Shown piece by piece: positions 48,285 through 57,737 of a DNA stretch of 64,000 nt. The stretch is from an uncultured candidate division Zixibacteria bacterium (GTDB lineage Bacteria; Zixibacteria; MSB-5A5; GN15; FEB-12): contig CAVTJJ010000006.1 of assembly GCA_963735035.1 (NCBI GenBank), positions 224,001-288,000 on the forward strand, read 5' to 3'. Within the stretch, counting starts at the first letter, position 1; every line of letters starts with the position of its first letter. The position numbers and the translations under genes were made by a program. Below the pieces are notes generated by a model. That model saw nothing but the letters and a program-made list of their open reading frames with translations, searched no databases and was not told where the DNA came from.

Positions 48285-49944
48285 GTGATGATAAAGGAGA
48301 CCGCCAGCCGTCATTCTGCGGCCGGCGTGACGCTCATACCCTCGCAATCGCTTGGCTATACGCGACTCTATCTGGATTTCGTGAAGGGGCAGCCATCGGT
48401 CGCTGATTTCTATCCGTCGCGCCAGACGGCATCAGTCGCCTCGGCTCTGGACAAGATTCGATTCGACCGTGGGACTATCGCGGACATTCTCGTTCGCCAG
48501 AATCGGGCGTTGGGAGCTGCCGACGCCACCTTGCAACAAATTGAGCGTCTGCGTGATCCCCGTTCGGTCTGTGTTTTCGCCGGACAGCAGGCGGGGCTGT
48601 TCTCGGGACCGTTGTTTACGATTATCAAAGCTCTCGGAATTGTTCGCCTGGCCCAACTTCACGAAGAACGCCTGGGTCGACCCGTGATTCCGATCTTCTG
48701 GATTGCCGGCGATGATCATGATTTCGCCGAAATAGACCATGTGGACGTCCTCTCGAGGACTGGCCAGATCGCTCGAATCGAATACGAGTCATCCCCGGCG
48801 TTACCTATTCCGGCTTCTGAGGCTAAGATCGATAACGAGGAAGAACTGGAGCGGCTTTTCGCCGAACTCGGAGAGTCTCTCGGCAAGACTGACCTCACGG
48901 CCGGAATGTTCGATCTTCTGAGGAAACGCTTACACAACCCAGGATACGATGGTGTCCTCGTTCGGCAAGCTCATGGCAGCTCTGACGAGCGAGTTGGGGC
49001 TGGTCTTGTTCAATCCATCGGATGCAGAAGTGAAGCGATTGGCCCAGCCGTTCTTTGTGACTATGCTGGACGAACAGCCGGCCATCCACGAGAGTCTAAG
49101 TCAGGCCAATAGCCGACTCACGCAGCGCGGTTATCATCTTCAAGTAGAGAAGAAAGATGATGCTGTTCATCTCTTCTGCAATCTCGACGGTCGCAAACCT
49201 GTCATGCGAGACGGTACCGCGTTTGTAGCCGGGAGTAAGCGATTCAGTCGGACCGAGATGGCTGGCCTGCTCACCGAGCGTCCGGAGGTTATTTCTCCCG
49301 ATGTACTTACCCGCCCGCTTATGCAAGCCTGGCTCTTTCCGGTACTGTTGCAGGTAGGCGGGCCGTCCGAGATTGCCTATTTCGCCCAGCTCAACGGTTT
49401 GTTTTCGTTAGTGAACCGTCCGGTTCCGGTCTATGCGGCGCGTCCGTCGGTCACGATCCTGGAGCGACGCATCGAGCAGGGCATGCAGGAATTGGGAATC
49501 TCGTTCGCGGATACTCGCGGCGATATTGAGCAGGCAGTCAACCGGGTATTAGCTGATACGTTCCCGGCTGATTTAGCGAAAGACTTTGCGAACCTTCGCG
49601 AGAACGTCACGAACCGGTTCCGTGAATTCTCCGATCAAGCACTTGGATTCGATCCCGGATTGAAAGAGACCGTTGAGCAGGTGCGGGGCAAGATCGACTT
49701 TCAGTTGAATGGGCTAGAAGCGAAAGTATTCGCGGCCCACAAGAAGAAGAGCCAGCAAACGCGCGAAAAGATCTATCGAATTGCCAATTCACTTTATCCG
49801 AATCGCACGCCCCAGGAGCGCTGTCTGAACGTTACCGGTTTCCTGGCCCGCTACGGTGTCGGATTTGTGCGTTATCTATATGAACACATGGACGCCGAGC
49901 AGACGGATCATCAACTTATCTCACTCGCGGAATTTGAGGCTTAG
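48285..49944 (+). CDS. bshC: Bacillithiol biosynthesis cysteine-adding enzyme; frameshift near 48925
   Basis: GQQAGLFSGPLFTIIKA, PIFWIAGDDHDFAEI; second frame SPDVLTRP, GGPSEIAYFAQL, PQER. Removing one A in ggaaacg joins them; adjacent to bshA. Confidence 0.85.
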
Positions 49945-52241: not shown

Positions 52242-53396
52242 GTGGAGACTTCGTCGCTTAAATCAGTCGCCCTGTGTCTGACCCACGCCTGCAACCTCCG
52301 CTGTCGCTACTGCTATGCGGGAGCGAAGGCGGGTCGGTCGATGACTCAGGATACAGCGCTGCAGGCGCTCAAGTTCCTGGCGCTACAGTCCAACGGTTCG
52401 TGCGCGGTCACGTTCTTTGGCGGCGAACCGCTCATGCAATTCGACCTTATCAAGGAAATTGTAGCTCGCGGCAAGTTGGAGTTTCCCGGCAAGTTCGCAT
52501 TCAGGATGGCCACCAACGGGACTCTGCTGACGACTGATACAATTGAATTCCTCAAGACTAACGGGGTGTACTTCTCGCTCAGTCTCGACGGCTCCCCCGA
52601 GCAGCAGAATTTCAACCGGGTTGATGTCTCGGGGCAGGGGTCATACGAACTGGTAGCGGCCGGTCTCGACGCTACACTCGCGTTCAATCCGTACACCGTG
52701 GCCGTCTCGGTTGTGACTCCGGAGACGGTGGAGTATCTGGCCGAGGGAGTGAAGCATCTGTTTGGTCTGGGTTTCAGGTATGTCGTCCAGACGCTGAACT
52801 ATTCGGCAGACTGGCATTCGGAAGACATCAAACGACTCAAGCGGCAGTATCAGGACCTCGCCGGGTTCTACTTCGACAGCCTCAAGGCGGGGAAGAAGCT
52901 CTACTACAGCCCGTTTGATTCGCGTATTCAAACCTGGGCGCAGAAGCCGATTGTTCCGGGTGAACTGTGCGACCTGGCCAACTCGCAGATCGCGATTGCG
53001 GTGTCGGGGCGGCTCTATCCCTGCGTTCAGTTTGTGGCTGAGGACGATGAGACAGCGCGGGCGAGTGCTATCGGCGACGTCTGGTCGGGTTTCGATCCGA
53101 CCCGGCGCGCCTGGTTTGTCGAGCAGAACCGTCAGGAGCCGGAAACGTGTGTCGGATGCACGCTGCACGGTCGCTGCGCTACGTATTGCGGCTGTGTGAA
53201 CTGGAAGACGACCGGCCATCTGAACCGGATTCCGCCGCTCATTTGTGAACACGAGCGGATGCTCATGCCGATTGTCGACCGACTCGCCAACAAGCTCTGG
53301 AAGGGCAAGGTGGAGTTGTTTAAGCGGAAATTTTACGACAAGACTTTCCCGATTTCGTCATATATTGAAGACTGTCTGATGAAGAAGGCGGAGTAG
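52242..53396 (+). CDS. Radical SAM/SPASM domain protein (anSME/peptide-maturase class)
   Basis: CNLRCRYC, FFGGEP, TNGTLL, SLDG; SPASM C...GRLYPC...CVGC.....C...C.C...C. Confidence 0.9.
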   Translation: METSSLKSVALCLTHACNLRCRYCYAGAKAGRSMTQDTALQALKFLALQSNGSCAVTFFGGEPLMQFDLIKEIVARGKLEFPGKFAFRMATNGTLLTTDTIEFLKTNGVYFSLSLDGSPEQQNFNRVDVSGQGSYELVAAGLDATLAFNPYTVAVSVVTPETVEYLAEGVKHLFGLGFRYVVQTLNYSADWHSEDIKRLKRQYQDLAGFYFDSLKAGKKLYYSPFDSRIQTWAQKPIVPGELCDLANSQIAIAVSGRLYPCVQFVAEDDETARASAIGDVWSGFDPTRRAWFVEQNRQEPETCVGCTLHGRCATYCGCVNWKTTGHLNRIPPLICEHERMLMPIVDRLANKLWKGKVELFKRKFYDKTFPISSYIEDCLMKKAE

Positions 53397-53397
53397 G

Positions 53398-53929
53398 ATG
53401 CTTCGGATCACACAGATCAGCCGGTACGATTTGCCCCGGTATCCACAGGGCGGGCAGTATGTGCACCCGCCTCGCTCGTCTGCAGCAAAGGTGCGTGACG
53501 CCGCCGCTCTGTCGATTCTGGCATACGCGCTGCGATCCTGCGGTCCTTGGATGGGAGGAAAACCTTTGCCACCCAAGTACGTAACGGAGATAGAGGCTCG
53601 GCTAGTCATTGGCGAAGTCTTCGCCGCACGAGGCATAAAGCTAGTAGCGGATCAGGCAGTGACCGTGCCGTTCAGTCAATCGGGTTCAGCAAAGCTGGTT
53701 GTCGATGGCTTCAATGATTCGCTACAGGTTGGCTATGAATATATCAGCATTGAAGACAAACCGATCTTCACGGACGACGTATGTCGTCGACTCGACAACC
53801 TGAATCGGGACGCCTCTCCGCATATCATTACTCTTCCAACCGAAGTAGAGGGAGAGGACGCTGAGGATACACCTCCGTCAGGTTGTAGAAGCTTTCCTCG
53901 TTTCACTTAAGACTCAGGGTGTAATATAG
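53398..53929 (+). CDS. Radical SAM-associated putative lipoprotein 1 (frameshift near 53865; corrected end 53929)
   Basis: YDLPRYP leader, h-region, LRSC lipobox. Removing one G gives ...HLRQVVEAFLVSLKTQGVI*, matching the paralog's HLQQVVNEFLDSLHAQGVI*. Confidence 0.75.
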
Positions 53930-53963
53930 GTCGCGGCAGTTATGAAGAGAAGGGCGGAATAGT

Positions 53964-54497
53964 ATGCTCCAGATTACCAAGATAACGCAATACGCGCGAC
54001 CGAAGTATCCTCACGGCGGGCAATATGTTTGTCCTCCCAGCACGGCCGGTGCGAGAGTGAGGGACGCTGCCGCGCTCTTGTCGCTTGTTGCTCTGTTGGA
54101 TTCGTGCGGCACGGAACCTACCGGAGGTGTGCCACCGCCACCGCAGCTCCTGTCGGAAGCCAGCGCGCGCCAGATTATCAAACAGGTATTTACCGCCCGT
54201 AGCATAACGCTCGATACCAGCCAGGTTGTTACCATTCCACTAAGTCCGACGGATACCTTGGAACTGAATCTCGACAGCTTCAATGATTCGCTACAAGTGG
54301 GATATGAGTATATCTACGAGGGTGACAATACGGAGTTCACTCCTGCCATACGCAATACGCTGGATAGCCTGAACGAGGAGTCCATGCCGCATATTCTCAC
54401 CCTTGATGCTGAGACTCAACGGGCGGCGGCCGAGGCGCATCTGCAGCAGGTCGTGAATGAATTCCTGGATTCTCTGCACGCCCAGGGCGTGATATAG
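53964..54497 (+). CDS. Radical SAM-associated putative lipoprotein 2
   Basis: YARPKYP leader, VRDAAAL h-region, LDSC lipobox; shares FNDSLQVGYEYI and PHI with paralog 1. Confidence 0.8.
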   Translation: MLQITKITQYARPKYPHGGQYVCPPSTAGARVRDAAALLSLVALLDSCGTEPTGGVPPPPQLLSEASARQIIKQVFTARSITLDTSQVVTIPLSPTDTLELNLDSFNDSLQVGYEYIYEGDNTEFTPAIRNTLDSLNEESMPHILTLDAETQRAAAEAHLQQVVNEFLDSLHAQGVI

Positions 54498-54499
54498 CT

Positions 54500-54925
54500 C
54501 TTGCCCGGCCCGCCGCGGCGAGCCCATATCTGCCGGTTGGGTGACCTGACGCAGATCCGCTGCGTAAGAACAATTACGGGGCGATAGCCCCGTAATTCCG
54601 GCGAAAGCCAGAACCCAGTTGTGGCTGCAGAATATATGCCTCTATGTTCAATCCAACCAAGCGAATGGAACAGCCAGACATTACGGAAATGATTCTGCGA
54701 TCACAACTGGGCCCCGGTTTACACCGGGGTGACGGCCTGGAGGCCGTCCTGTTCAGGTCAATCACGCCTCCGCCTTGTAGGTCGGGATGCTTGTCATCCC
54801 GACATTCTCGTTGTCAGGACCTCGCCTCGGCGAGCAGGCACAAGGGTCCCGACCCACAAGAGATGTTCCAATTCGTCACCCTGAGCCTAGCCTGACCAGA
54901 GCTTGACGCAGGGTCGAAGGGAGAT
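54500..54925. repeat. REP-like palindrome cluster
   Basis: attacggggcgatagccccgtaat, gtaggtcgggatgcttgtcatcccgac, gtcaggacc...ggtcccgac, gtcaccctgagc...gtcgaaggg. Confidence 0.7.
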
Positions 54926-55229
54926 GTCGCTCCCAAATCTCTTTCGTCAACTGCAGCAGCCGCTTGTACGGGATCGCGGTCCAGCTTTCCGCGACCGCCG
55001 CGCCGTGCGACCGGCTGATCAGCGACACTTTGGCGGCAGTTTCTTCGTCCGGCGCTTCGTAGATGTCCATGAAGTCATACTTGCCAAGAAGCGCATAGTG
55101 GGCGAGAAACTTCACCTTGGGGCATTTTTCGTGGACTTCGTCGAGCCAGACGGCGCCTATATCGGCGCGGTCTTTCATTCTGGCGGCCACGTCGGGCGCC
55201 AGCCGGGTCATGAGGATGAAGGTTTTCAT
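54876..55229 (-). CDS. GYD domain-containing protein
   Basis: AAAGGAGG RBS before ATG 55229; YALLGKYDFMDIYEAPD motif. The last ~15 codons run into a REP element. Confidence 0.8.
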   Translation of the reverse strand: MKTFILMTRLAPDVAARMKDRADIGAVWLDEVHEKCPKVKFLAHYALLGKYDFMDIYEAPDEETAAKVSLISRSHGAAVAESWTAIPYKRLLQLTKEIWERHLPSTLRQALVRLGSG

Positions 55230-55329
55230 CGGCGTGCCTCCTTTACATCTGTTTCGGCCTTTCGGCGATGTCATTCGGGCAGCGTGAAATTCAACTGATC
55301 GAACCTGAAATCGGAACATATCCGCTTTC

Positions 55330-55426
55330 TGGCGGAAGGGGTGGGAATCGAACCCACCGGGGACAATGCAATTGCCCCCCTCACGGCTTTGAAGGCCGGG
55401 ACCGCCACCAGACGACATCCGCTTCC
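55330..55426 (-). tRNA. selC: tRNA-Sec (anticodon UCA)
   Basis: Reverse complement GGAAGCGG...CTGGTGG...CCGGCC TTCAAA GCCG, long variable arm, GGTTCGATTCC, ends CTTCCGCCA; 97 nt. Confidence 0.92.
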
Positions 55427-55467: not shown

Positions 55468-55605
55468 GTAGGTCGGGTTCACGAGGCGGTCACGGAGCGA
55501 GCGGCCGAGCAACCCGACAGCTTCGGCAGGGGTGGAACCCTGCCGATCACATTTTGGGCTGCCGATCATACATCTTGACTGCCGATTGGGGTAGAGCCCA
55601 CCCCC
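55468..55605. repeat. REP-like palindrome cluster
   Basis: gtaggtcgggtt...aacccgaca; cggcaggggtggaaccctgccgatca. Confidence 0.7.
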
Positions 55606-55649
55606 AAATTATGATTGACTCCGGGGCCGTTGCTTTGCACCCTTCACCT

Positions 55650-57737
55650 GTGGCCGAACTGAGACTCAATTCTCCGCTTCAATACGTCAAGGGTGTCGGG
55701 CCTAAGAAAGCCGAAGTGCTCGCGCACCACGGCATGAACACGGTCGAAGACATCCTTTACTACTTTCCGCGCCAGTACCTCGACCGAAGCAATATCGTCC
55801 GCATAGCCGACCTCAAGATCGACCAGCCTGCGACCATCATCGGCGAGGTCAAAGCGCACGGCATCCTGTATGGCCGTCGCAAGCGCTACGAAGTTATCCT
55901 CGCAGACGAGTCCGGCAACGTCTCGCTGATCTGGTTCGCGGGGGTCAAGTTCTGGGAGCGGTTGTTCAAGAAGGGGATGAAATTCGCCGCCACCGGCACC
56001 CCGAGCTTCTTCCAAGAACTGCAAATCATCCACCCCGACCTGGAACGGCTCGATGACTTCTCCGATCAACTGGTCCACTCCGGGCGGATTATCCCGATCT
56101 ACCCGCAGACTTCAGAACTGAGCAAGGTCGGTCTGTCCAGCAAGGGAATGCGAACGATCACCACGTTCATCTTCGAGCATGTCACCGAGCGATTGGAAGA
56201 GTATCTACCGGAGTCGCTGCTTCAGAAACATCAGCTTCTCTCACGCCATGACGCGGTCGCGCACACTCATTACCCCGAAACTCGGGAGCAAATCGAAGAT
56301 TGTCGCCGCCGGCTGGCCTTTGACGAACTGCTTCAGCTTCAGTATCTAGTATCCCGCAACAAAGGACGCAAGGCGACCATCTCGAAGAAGCATCACTACG
56401 CCGCGCCCGGACCGCATCTCACCCAATTCCGGAAAGCACTCCCATTTGAATTGACCGCCGAGCAGAAGAAGGTGGTCAAGGAGATCATCGCCGGAATGCA
56501 GGGCGAGAGACCGATGTCCCGCCTGTTGCACGGCGAAGTCGGTTGCGGCAAAACCGTAGTCGCAGTGATAGCGGCTCTGTATGCCGCCGAAAACGGCCTT
56601 CAGTGCGCTTTCATGGCTCCGACCGAAATCCTGGCCGAGCAGCATTTCCGAAATTGGGGTGCCCTCTTAACAGAGTGCGGTGCTCCCACCGCGCTTTTGA
56701 CCGCCAATTCCTCGGCGGCTCATAAGAAGAAGGTCGCGAAAGAATGCGCCGAGGGTGGCATCAGTATTCTGTTCGGCACCCACGCGCTGATATACGATTA
56801 TGTCAATTTCCGCCGGCTAGGTCTGGTCGTGATCGATGAACAGCATCGGTTCGGAGTGGAACAACGGGGACGACTCTACGCTAAGGGCGAAGACCCCGAC
56901 CTTCTGGTGATGACTGCTACTCCAATTCCGCGCACCCTGGCGTTGACTCTTTACGGTGACCTCGACATCTCTACGATCAAAGACGTTCCCCCCGGACGGC
57001 AGCCGATACGCACTGTCTGGCGGATGGCCGACGCCCGTGACAAAGTCTGGCAATTTATCCGCGAAGAGGCGGCGAAGAAGGGCCAGACCTATATCGTGTA
57101 TCCGCTGATAGAGAAATCAGAACAGTCGGAAATGGAGAACGTTGAGGATGCTTTCCAGGAATTGTCATCCGGTGCCCTGAAAGGGTTGCGACTCGGCATT
57201 GTTCATGGTCGGGTGAAGCCGAAAGAGCGCGACGAGATTCTCGCCGAGTTCCGGGCCGGAAGGATTGACGTGTTGCTCGCCACTACGGTTATCGAGGTCG
57301 GTCTCGACAATCCGAACGCCACGATGCTGGTAATTGAGCATGCGGAGCGGTTCGGTCTGGCGCAGTTGCATCAGTTGAGGGGGCGAATCGGGCGTGGTTC
57401 GCGCTCGGCCACGGCGATAGCCATCGCGCATGCCCCGGTGTCTCCGATTGCCCGTCAGCGGCTGGAGTATTTTGCTCAGCACTCCGACGGATTCTTGATT
57501 GCCGAAGCCGACTTGCAGTTGCGCGGTCCGGGAGAGATTTTCGGAGTGCGGCAGTCCGGTCTGCCGGAATTGCGGGTGGCCAATCTGTGGCGAGATCGTG
57601 ATCTGATGGAATCCGGTCGTGAAGTGTTGGAGCAGTTGATCACCCGTACGGATGAACTTGACAGCCCGCATCAGCGGCTTTATACCTACTTGCAGCGGGC
57701 CGCCGAAAAACGCGAAATTCATCTCGGCGGCGGATAA
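55650..57737 (+). CDS. recG: ATP-dependent DNA helicase RecG
   Basis: KGVGPK, RRLAFDE, GEVGCGKT, MAPTEILAEQH, IDEQHRFG, TATPIPR, LHQLRGRIGR, DLQLRGPG. Start GTG 55650 inferred. Confidence 0.95.
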   Translation: MAELRLNSPLQYVKGVGPKKAEVLAHHGMNTVEDILYYFPRQYLDRSNIVRIADLKIDQPATIIGEVKAHGILYGRRKRYEVILADESGNVSLIWFAGVKFWERLFKKGMKFAATGTPSFFQELQIIHPDLERLDDFSDQLVHSGRIIPIYPQTSELSKVGLSSKGMRTITTFIFEHVTERLEEYLPESLLQKHQLLSRHDAVAHTHYPETREQIEDCRRRLAFDELLQLQYLVSRNKGRKATISKKHHYAAPGPHLTQFRKALPFELTAEQKKVVKEIIAGMQGERPMSRLLHGEVGCGKTVVAVIAALYAAENGLQCAFMAPTEILAEQHFRNWGALLTECGAPTALLTANSSAAHKKKVAKECAEGGISILFGTHALIYDYVNFRRLGLVVIDEQHRFGVEQRGRLYAKGEDPDLLVMTATPIPRTLALTLYGDLDISTIKDVPPGRQPIRTVWRMADARDKVWQFIREEAAKKGQTYIVYPLIEKSEQSEMENVEDAFQELSSGALKGLRLGIVHGRVKPKERDEILAEFRAGRIDVLLATTVIEVGLDNPNATMLVIEHAERFGLAQLHQLRGRIGRGSRSATAIAIAHAPVSPIARQRLEYFAQHSDGFLIAEADLQLRGPGEIFGVRQSGLPELRVANLWRDRDLMESGREVLEQLITRTDELDSPHQRLYTYLQRAAEKREIHLGGG

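Follow-up and report, generated by a model that had tools for sequence, protein, structure and literature searches.

Background

Radical S-adenosylmethionine (SAM) enzymes of the SPASM type that act as maturases are usually found via short precursors, RiPP (peptide made by the ribosome and then modified post-translationally) recognition element (RRE) domains, or dedicated proteases or exporters. According to the available text on one of them, PapB, it links Cys to Asp or Glu and accepts C-Xn-D with n = 0-6 (PMC9413430), and the accessible part of another report describes CrpC, a radical SAM/SPASM enzyme of Methanococcus voltae, as modifying the adjacently encoded protein CrpA with thioether cross-links (PMC13692751). 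Bufferins, in the available sections of two further sources, are RiPPs modified by MNIO (multinuclear non-heme iron-dependent oxidative) enzymes, the precursors having a Sec signal instead of a classical leader (PMC11626156, PMC12452194). The locus described here consists of a radical SAM/SPASM gene and two tandem paralogs in a 64,000-nucleotide stretch (hereafter, the window) of the genome of an uncultured candidate division Zixibacteria bacterium (contig CAVTJJ010000006.1, positions 224,001 to 288,000, forward strand). On balance, the enzyme and the paralogs probably constitute a two-component maturation module, in which the enzyme would modify its partner before export, guided by an N-terminal tag that is removed together with the signal peptide. 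Gene context, conservation, co-variation and a controlled co-fold give good support to their being an enzyme-substrate module in which the N-terminal tag serves for docking.

Gene order and pairing of the enzyme with its tagged proteins

The open reading frame (ORF) list, with translations, gives three co-directional genes, the first of which ends 1 nt before the second:

52242..53396, + strand: radical SAM/SPASM gene, GTG start, 384 aa, putative maturase
53398..53910, + strand: paralog A, 170-aa ORF with tag, hydrophobic segment, Cys48 and domain, C-terminus frameshifted
53964..54497, + strand: paralog B, 177 aa, intact, putative substrate

An earlier sequence-only reading of the window had noted a SPASM radical SAM gene followed after 1 nt by two tandem paralogs, and the coordinates in the ORF list are the same, which confirms that observation. 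Its remark that no sulfatase or PqqD/RRE gene is nearby also agrees with the annotation of the flanking genes, among which there is no sulfatase, PqqD/RRE, protease or transporter.

The pairing of enzyme and substrate is strict and is not a product of chance. The substrate family was found by genome search and profile search, a pattern scan of the genome contigs with the substrate alignment having detected no relative. A word search recovered 12 clusters and the profile search 315 at E<=1e-3 (83 at <=1e-10 and 43 at <=1e-30), most of them aligned from residue 1 to residue 177. A radical SAM homolog lies directly before the substrate gene in all six loci with upstream DNA (from metagenomes and two related genomes; two further loci cut at the 5' end were left out), and 11 further genomes show the same adjacency. 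Matches to the substrate family occur in 16 of the 285 genomes of a phylum sample; in 14 of the 16, including the genome of the window (G000), the match is the full-length tagged form with an adjacent radical SAM ortholog, 58-69% identical, and an independent scan of the 285 genomes for the enzyme (E<=1e-60) found orthologs in exactly the same 14. Homologs of the tagged proteins therefore sit next to homologs of this enzyme, as the sequence-only reading had predicted, at the six loci and in the 11 genomes, and presence and absence of the two coincide across the sample. Four of the 14 genomes (those of the window, G110, G186 and G188) have two tandem substrate copies. The other two of the 16 have no enzyme adjacent or elsewhere at E<=1e-60: G124 encodes a distant homolog of the domain, tag-less and with the usual kind of lipoprotein signal, and G157 retains a C-terminal substrate remnant with a TAG stop.

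Distribution of the pair across phyla

A scan of genome contigs with the enzyme alignment identified 79 loci, to which the phylum scan added 11. Of these 90 loci, 83 centred on a radical SAM gene were scored against a profile of the enzyme clade, seven (L016 among them) having no radical SAM ORF by the rule applied. A tagged neighbour was defined as a same-strand ORF within 1.7 kb with the N-terminal motif and a following hydrophobic stretch, and the tag proved to follow one clade of enzymes:

Score of at least 640 bits to the clade profile: tagged neighbour at 13 of 13 loci
379-412 bits: tagged neighbour at 4 of 7 loci by rule, at the other 3 by eye
240-300 bits: tagged neighbour at 5 of 15 loci
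Below 240 bits, a Paenibacillus PapB-like enzyme included: tagged neighbour at 0 of 48 loci
Opposite-strand control ORFs: tag flagged in 0 of 1798

L017, L018 and L023, where the spacer is long or the hydrophobic score weaker, escaped the automated rule, and a tag variant is visible by eye at L016. The tagged neighbours vary greatly as proteins, being about 177 aa long in the window and in Krumholzibacteriia; 440-540 aa, and often in tandem, in Saprospiraceae; about 370 aa in a metagenome-assembled genome (MAG) labelled Akkermansia; about 300 aa, and acidic, in a deltaproteobacterial MAG; and 99-136 aa in Verrucomicrobiota, with a tag that leads into a twin-arginine translocation (Tat)-like YPTRRQFL (L072). 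For the enzymes of relatives from other phyla the best NCBIfam score is that of PapB, at 183-250 bits and below the cut-off, and the tagged substrates across phyla have no Pfam or NCBIfam match. Because the flanking genes vary from locus to locus, the conserved unit is the enzyme plus one or two tagged proteins; there is no third conserved gene, and no protease, transporter or RRE is found in the flanks of the loci compared. By sequence comparison, then, an uncharacterised pair of enzyme and tagged protein recurs in several bacterial phyla.

The radical SAM/SPASM enzyme

The enzyme belongs to the radical SAM superfamily by its match to PF04055 (2.9e-20, 73.5 bits, cut-off 29.5). Its cysteine pattern, and an alignment with SPASM maturases that extends to residues 328-340, place it in the SPASM subfamily; the Pfam model for SPASM was not itself reported for it at E<=1. 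The seven-cysteine SPASM pattern, CX9-15GX4C ... CX2CX5CX3C ... C, holds two auxiliary clusters; in this enzyme it takes the form C243-X12-G-X4-C261, C303-X2-C306-X5-C312-X3-C316 and C335, with an extra Cys318 (C-x-C) that is missing from the Paenibacillus PapB-like enzyme (locus L050). All eight cysteines of the region, Cys318 included, are invariant in 15 orthologs.

52290..52313, + strand: CX3CX2C motif of the radical SAM [4Fe-4S] cluster, C17/C21/C24 (residues 17-24), invariant in the 15 orthologs
52968..53246, + strand: SPASM region, C243, C261, C303, C306, C312, C316 and C335, plus the extra C318
53259..53366, + strand: C-terminal helices, residues 340-375, predicted tag-docking site, D346-R-L-A-N-x-L-W353 and F360-x-R-K-F364-Y365

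The cluster motif begins at residue 17, which leaves no room for an N-terminal RRE of about 95 aa such as that of the L050 enzyme. The alignment of the orthologs begins at residue 1, which points to the GTG at 52242 as the likely start; the protein-collection entry for the enzyme (P0013, 351 aa, 91% coverage) starts downstream of it and is without the CX3CX2C motif (window 52242-52340).

Among NCBIfam models the best match is PapB (NF047865), with 226.1 bits against a cut-off of 340 over profile positions 2-328 of 330. The SCIFF maturase model scores 142 bits (cut-off 425), QhpD 134 (453), anSME (TIGR03942) 75.8 (349) and TIGR04133 40.4 (425), the last value being that of the window's enzyme at G000:C6:276242-276781. 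The closest solved structure by sequence is 5wgg (112 bits, enzyme residues 4-340 corresponding to chain residues 94-440), and the anSME structure 4k37 scores 60 bits. The C-terminal segment extends beyond both the end of the PapB profile (residue 328) and the end of the alignment to 5wgg (residue 340). The enzyme is not an anSME, nor is the pair the family of radical SAM enzymes and lipoproteins modelled as TIGR04133 and TIGR04134, a question that the sequence-only reading had raised. The paralogs have no Pfam or NCBIfam match at E<=1, TIGR04134 (cut-off 39.8 bits) included, and the only weak matches to that model in the genome, at about 15 bits, lie elsewhere.

The tag, the export signal and the tether

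The two paralogs are 50% identical, their alignment diverging past about residue 156, and they share one register: MLxITxIxxYxxPxYPxGGQYVxPP, then VRDAAAL, a hydrophobic run, Cys48 and a Gly/Pro-rich stretch (CGPWMGGKPLPP after Cys48 in paralog A, CGTEPTGGVPPPP in paralog B).

B 53964..54038, A 53398-53472, + strand: N-terminal tag, residues 1-25 (MLRITQISRYDLPRYPQGGQYVHPP in A, MLQITKITQYARPKYPHGGQYVCPP in B)
B 54048..54107, A 53488-53541, + strand: signal-peptide-like hydrophobic helix, ending L-D-S-C48 in B and L-R-S-C48 in A
54108..54146, + strand: Gly/Pro-rich tether, residues 49-61, GTEPTGGVPPPPQ, candidate modification segment
53849..53929, + strand: C-terminal helix of paralog A, in the +1 frame only, HLRQVVEAFLVSLKTQGVI then stop

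Across 57 members with a mean column identity of 35%, only four positions are invariant, Y10 and Y15 among them, and P16 is conserved in at least 90%. By alignment, this N-terminal conservation is far beyond chance; the unusually conserved N-region and YxxPxYP element of the sequence-only reading hold up, YxxPxYP being the most conserved part of the family. The pattern Y-x-x-x-x-Y-P lies in the N-terminal 70 residues of 112 of 161 family clusters, its first Tyr being residue 9 or 10, and the logo of the tag reads M-L-[KEQR]-[IVL]-[KR]-x-[VIL]-[KR]-x-Y-x-[VLI]-[PA]-[KR]-Y-P. The remaining 49 clusters are mostly N-terminal fragments or Y-x-x-P-x-F-P variants, with a few that have plain signal peptides; when F is allowed at the second aromatic position, there are 117 tagged members. 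Shine-Dalgarno-like GGAGG motifs precede Met1 in divergent loci, which argues that the tag is translated.

The hydrophobic helix was modelled by AlphaFold2 at residues 28-46. A Cys follows the hydrophobic region in 105 of the 117 tagged relatives, with S, G or A at position -1 in 93 of the 105, and distant members have the canonical lipoboxes LSGC, LSAC or LTGC. The other 12, without the Cys and ending in Ala-x-Ala-like sites, look like signal peptidase I substrates. As judged from these signals, the tagged proteins are exported and most of them are probably lipoproteins, the window copies being atypical. A Tat signal was considered for the window copies and rejected because they have no RR motif, Tat-like motifs being found in distant relatives only. 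In MAGs of Verrucomicrobiota, Planctomycetota and Myxococcales the tag (…P-x-Y-P-[ST]) runs into twin-arginine-like RRQFL, RREVL or RREFL, and these relatives probably use Tat export:

L028:2686-2982: Tat-like tagged relative
L072:2542-2949: Tat-like tagged relative
L016:2213-2989: Tat-like tagged relative
L040:2573-2998: Tat-like tagged relative

In the tether, G55 is conserved in at least 90% of the close family (57 sequences), and most members that have a G-x-P have it 10-11 residues before E65. A tagged subfamily with a longer spacer, …P-E-L-L-x-x-L-P-x-R-W…, comprises P0228, P0245, P0247, P0279 and L016:2213-2989, and after its signal it has [IV]-F-x-H-G-x-G-x-G-x-x-G-C-x4-P-P-x-F-L-S-E-E.

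Paralog A is frameshifted near 53860-53870, so that the C-terminal helix of the family is lost from its ORF. Since the BshC gene upstream is also split, an assembly error is as likely as recent decay. Decayed substrate copies are seen in other genomes, at L104 (G157:C287:11787-12011) and L103/L109 (G064:C3:328609-329144); in G064 the frameshifted copy still follows an intact enzyme gene.

Predicted docking of the tag

In the co-folds, which combined the enzyme alignment with three 4Fe-4S clusters, SAM and substrate residues 1-70, the scores were 0.74, 0.67 and 0.78; of three controls none exceeded 0.01, and the runs share at least 63% of their contacts. The interface has two parts. In the first, substrate residues 11-20, with Tyr15 packed tightest, lie on enzyme residues 229-235 and 343-374; the lowest-error contacts of Tyr15 are with enzyme residues 229, 232, 233, 346, 349, 350, 352, 353, 364 and 365. 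The second comprises substrate residues 55-58 and 62-68, and the enzyme barrel residues 110, 112, 149-156 and 180-184 are also in the interface. An aromatic residue at 353 together with F-x-[RH]-[KR]-[FH]-Y is found in all ten aligned enzymes with tagged neighbours (the window's own excluded) and in one of ten without. This co-variation of the C-terminal motif with the tag lends comparative support to docking at that site in place of an RRE. Tyr15-Pro16 is accordingly predicted by the models to dock on the clade-specific C-terminal helices of the enzyme, and the co-fold of enzyme and leader that the sequence-only reading had called for places the tag on the enzyme and passes its controls.

The mature domain

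54147..54494, + strand: folded domain, alpha-beta-beta-beta-alpha-beta-alpha, with E65, A68, R69, D104, G105, G113, Y114, E115 and Y116 conserved

The AlphaFold2 model, made with a 57-row alignment, has a predicted local distance difference test (pLDDT) score of 89.2, and its domain spans residues 61-177. The best structural match is 3r3p_B, the endonuclease domain of I-Bth0305I (Z 8.5, root-mean-square deviation 3.2, 93 residues aligned), followed by RAP, VRR_NUC, Bax1, NGO0050, AbaSI and Vsr at Z 6.5-7.5 (4qbn, 8gy8, 3hrl, 4par and 1cw0 at Z 6.5-6.7). In this search, unmatched models commonly reach a best Z of 7-8; Z 8.5 is borderline, and Foldseek against the PDB returned nothing at E<=1e-3. 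The PD-(D/E)xK fold has an alpha-beta-beta-beta-alpha-beta core and acidic residues on alpha1, beta2 and beta3; in the family E65, D104 and E115 are conserved, and no Lys follows E115. Because the Z is borderline and the Foldseek search was negative, the modelled fold is called restriction-endonuclease-like, itself a borderline assignment, and nuclease activity is not claimed. Tag-less homologs, too, have E65, A68, R69, D-G-[FY] and G-[YF]-x-Y, which therefore belong to the domain's own function.

Proposed maturation and its alternatives

In the mechanism that we consider slightly the more probable, the cytoplasmic enzyme would recognise the new precursor by the N-terminal tag, M-L-x-I-K-x-V-x-x-Y-x-x-P-x-Y-P, ahead of the export signal, the tag being bound by the C-terminal helices of the enzyme instead of by an RRE domain. 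The segment after the signal peptide (about G55 to E65) would thread into the barrel, and a radical-mediated modification would be installed before export. The precursor would then leave by a general export route, and signal peptidase, namely signal peptidase II if the Cys is lipidated, would cut at Cys48. Since one cut would take off both tag and signal, a dedicated leader protease or transporter would be unneeded. The product would be a modified periplasmic or surface-anchored protein with the restriction-endonuclease-like fold. The modification, with its site and chemistry, is inferred here, as are lipidation and the role of the mature domain. The most likely target, though weakly indicated, is the tether (about residues 53-65), on two grounds: substrate contacts at 55-58 and 62-68 in the co-fold, and the conserved G55.

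The sequence-only reading had likewise proposed that the enzyme docks on the leader and modifies the exported protein, with signal peptidase II doubling as leader peptidase. The computational checks that it had put forward, on the pairing, the conservation of the tag, the family placement of the enzyme and the predicted docking, turned out in its favour, while the modification, its site and the cleavage by signal peptidase II stay conditional; for signal peptidase II, the Cys of most relatives speaks in favour and the atypical lipoboxes of the window, the 12 of 117 relatives without Cys and the Tat-like relatives speak against.

Several points weigh against the proposed maturation. Its support consists of gene context, conservation and the model's own confidence, and no modification has been observed. 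The modification site is weakly defined: G-x-P precedes the first helix in only 56 of 96 tagged members and in 4 of 17 untagged sequences, and the long-spacer subfamily has a conserved Cys at the position of G55. The nearest characterised enzymes (PapB, the SCIFF maturase and QhpD, by NCBIfam name) make Cys thioethers, and the single conserved Cys of the substrate would be needed for lipidation, at odds with such chemistry. A lipobox has the form [LVI]-[ASTVI]-[GAS]-C after a hydrophobic region, and the window copies fit this rule at -3 and -1 with an atypical Arg (A) or Asp (B) at -2, which makes lipidation uncertain here; the lipobox assigned to Cys48 in the sequence-only reading therefore stands as to a Cys after the hydrophobic run in both proteins and falters at -2. 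Among the 105 relatives with the Cys, 44 look canonical and 31 have an acid at -2. In the co-fold, the pLDDT of the partner is low (41-51), and the mark, which 116 of 157 solved complexes attain against 2 of 215 mismatched pairs, was calibrated without ligands or user alignments. The tag-less, enzyme-less case is a single genome. Cys48 as a universal modification site was downgraded, given the 12 of 117 tagged relatives without Cys.

It is unlikely, though the best of the alternatives, that the tag is itself the core peptide and not a docking leader, with a cross-link or other change at Tyr10/Tyr15 that either governs export or, once the signal peptide is cut, leaves a modified fragment of it. 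Enterococci have bioactive peptides that come from signal peptides of lipoproteins, and several observations would suit this reading: no positions in the whole protein are better conserved than Y10, Y15 and P16, Tyr15 packs tightest against the enzyme in the co-fold, and the tag is the only element common to the 177-aa, 300-500-aa and 99-136-aa proteins beside the enzyme. However, Tyr15 touches the bridging region and the C-terminal helices (229-235, 343-374), the barrel residues being listed with substrate 55-58 and 62-68; a modification discarded with the signal peptide needs an extra rationale; and in most lineages the mature domain has been conserved together with the system.

A thioether of the PapB/QhpD type from Cys48 to a nearby acid (D/E46 or E65), which would leave Cys48 unlipidated and the signal as an uncleaved anchor helix, is improbable. 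It would be in keeping with the best family matches of the enzyme, all thioether-forming maturases (PapB 226, SCIFF maturase 142, QhpD 134 bits), with the flexible spacing of the Cys-Asp/Glu links made by PapB, as given in the available text (PMC9413430), with the conservation of Cys48 (at least 90%) and E65 (invariant) in 57 sequences, and with the unusual acid at -2 in 31 of 105 members. Yet the 12 of 117 tagged relatives whose hydrophobic region is not followed by a Cys, and which resemble substrates of signal peptidase I, are of the same family; distant members have canonical lipoboxes and no acid; E65, A68 and R69 are kept in tag-less homologs, and so serve the domain and not the enzyme; and the extra invariant Cys318 is missing from the PapB-like enzyme of L050.

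Just as improbable is a tag that merely tunes export as an extended signal-peptide region, comparable to that of autotransporters (ESPR), with the enzyme linked to these proteins otherwise and not modifying them: conserved N-terminal extensions of signal peptides do exist without any modification, none was observed here, and the tag abuts a Tat-like RR motif in some relatives (YPTRRQFL, L072), but the tag is found only beside one radical SAM clade, a tag-less homolog occurs without the enzyme, the C-terminal motif of the enzyme co-varies with the tag, the co-fold passes where controls stay at or below 0.01, and the enzymes of this branch are, by NCBIfam naming, peptide or protein maturases.

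Flanking genes and other radical SAM loci

By annotation, the upstream genes encode an LPG_synthase_TM protein, BshC, BshA and BshB; downstream are a minus-strand GYD-domain gene, tRNA-Sec, RecG and a DUF1844 protein. Between 51700 and 55600, sites resembling promoters or terminators are not commoner than in shuffled sequence, Rfam has no match inside the three genes, and the non-coding DNA 5' of the radical SAM gene is not conserved with the close relatives L003 and L004. In these two loci a minus-strand GYD-type gene fills the space between BshB and the radical SAM gene (L003:1217-1883, L004:6127-6848), whereas in the window it lies after paralog B (54876-55418); this local rearrangement goes together with a duplicated substrate gene. 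The tRNA-Sec (anticodon TCA, 55330-55426, minus strand; Rfam 67.6 bits, ARAGORN in agreement) is located between the GYD-domain gene and RecG, about 830 nt past paralog B; the long ORF at 54876-55418 on the minus strand overlaps it, so the true start of the GYD gene must be internal. BshC (48285-49944, + strand) is represented by two overlapping ORFs, 48285-49112 and 48949-49944, that cover PF10079 profile positions 12-206 and 214-379, the L004 ortholog being a single ORF of 551 aa.

The pair adjoins genes of DNA metabolism in three contexts, next to RecG in the window, an NAD-dependent DNA ligase in G060, and an Exo_endo_phos protein and Tex in G050:

Window 55554-57737: DNA-metabolism neighbour, RecG
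L012:2-1996: DNA-metabolism neighbour locus
L013:4958-7965: DNA-metabolism neighbour locus

These neighbours are curious beside the nuclease-like fold of the substrate, but they may be a coincidence. Three other radical SAM genes of the genome score 137-196 bits to TIGR04133, below its cut-off, and are further uncharacterised radical SAM loci; two of the three have a second weak radical SAM match about 1 kb upstream:

G000:C3:943817-944782: other radical SAM gene, TIGR04133 below cut-off
C2:68946-69872: other radical SAM gene, TIGR04133 below cut-off
C4:561407-562336: other radical SAM gene, TIGR04133 below cut-off

Comparison with known systems

If the proposed maturation is correct, a general, as yet undescribed logic can be put forward, tentatively and with somewhat less assurance than the module itself: an RRE-less enzyme would hold a pre-lipoprotein by a Tyr-x-x-Pro-x-Tyr-Pro tag of about 16 residues, modify the tether past the lipobox, and release the protein to Sec or Tat, whereupon a housekeeping signal peptidase would remove tag and signal in one cut. 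Such a tag would be a portable recognition element, automatically removed by the cell's signal peptidase, and a new answer to the problem of leader removal. Because the module has no short precursor, RRE, or dedicated protease or exporter, standard RiPP mining would miss it, and the tag could serve to find proteins with radical modifications at the cell surface in several phyla that have been little studied. The Zixibacteria-like group, Krumholzibacteriia, Saprospiraceae, Verrucomicrobiota, Planctomycetota and Myxococcota, at least, would display unannotated radical-modified surface proteins, and the modelled mature domain would be an unannotated extracytoplasmic protein with a nuclease-like fold. 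A literature search, with subscription journals outside its coverage, returned no paper on a radical SAM enzyme paired with tagged lipoprotein precursors.

PapB, the freyrasin ranthipeptide maturase (NF047865), is the best-scoring family and has the same radical SAM and SPASM layout, with the product of a neighbouring gene as substrate. The window enzyme, at 226.1 bits below the cut-off of 340, differs in having no N-terminal RRE and in its extra Cys318 and distinct C-terminal motif; in contrast, the Paenibacillus PapB-like enzyme of L050 (474 aa) has about 95 additional residues at its N-terminus, and a 36-aa precursor rich in Cys and Asp is encoded upstream of it. PapB systems are marked by a short precursor with repeated Cys-X3-Asp/Glu and a leader-binding domain, neither of which is found here, the window substrate being protein-sized, at about 177 aa, free of CX3D repeats and with a single conserved Cys. 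The structure 5WGG (entry title 'Radical SAM domain protein') is presumably CteB, a SCIFF maturase; the aligned part of this protein starts at residue 94, past an N-terminal peptide-binding domain that the window enzyme is without, and the window enzyme runs about 44 residues beyond the CteB-aligned end.

Other systems resemble the pair in the size or the fate of the substrate. The anSME enzymes (TIGR03942, 4K37) are likewise RRE-less radical SAM/SPASM proteins that modify a full-size exported protein in the cytoplasm before export, but the window enzyme scores 75.8 bits against their cut-off of 349, there is no sulfatase nearby, and the substrate has no C/S-x-P-x-R motif. QhpD, acting on QhpC (TIGR03906), is also a radical SAM/SPASM enzyme with a protein-sized, periplasm-bound substrate; it is the fourth-best NCBIfam match of the window enzyme (134 bits, below the cut-off of 453), and the flanks of the window pair have no amine dehydrogenase genes, dedicated protease or exporter. 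TIGR04133/TIGR04134 of Bacteroides embodies the same concept of radical SAM enzyme and lipoprotein and is a different family by its scores. Bufferins, in the portions of the reports available, have precursors in which a general export signal replaces the classical leader, and a maturation completed by the export machinery, as proposed here, but they are modified by an MNIO enzyme and not a radical SAM enzyme, and those portions describe no separate conserved tag. CrpC resembles the window enzyme as a radical SAM/SPASM protein with a genetically adjacent protein substrate; it differs, within the accessible part of its report, in a predicted RRE and a Cys-rich substrate, the window pair having no RRE and one conserved Cys.

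By analogy, the system of the window would be a leader-dependent radical SAM/SPASM maturase with a genetically linked substrate, similar to anSME and QhpD in that the substrate is protein-sized and exported. Unlike the systems compared, it appears to place the recognition element ahead of a general export signal, to bind it by C-terminal helices with no RRE, and to operate without a dedicated protease or exporter.

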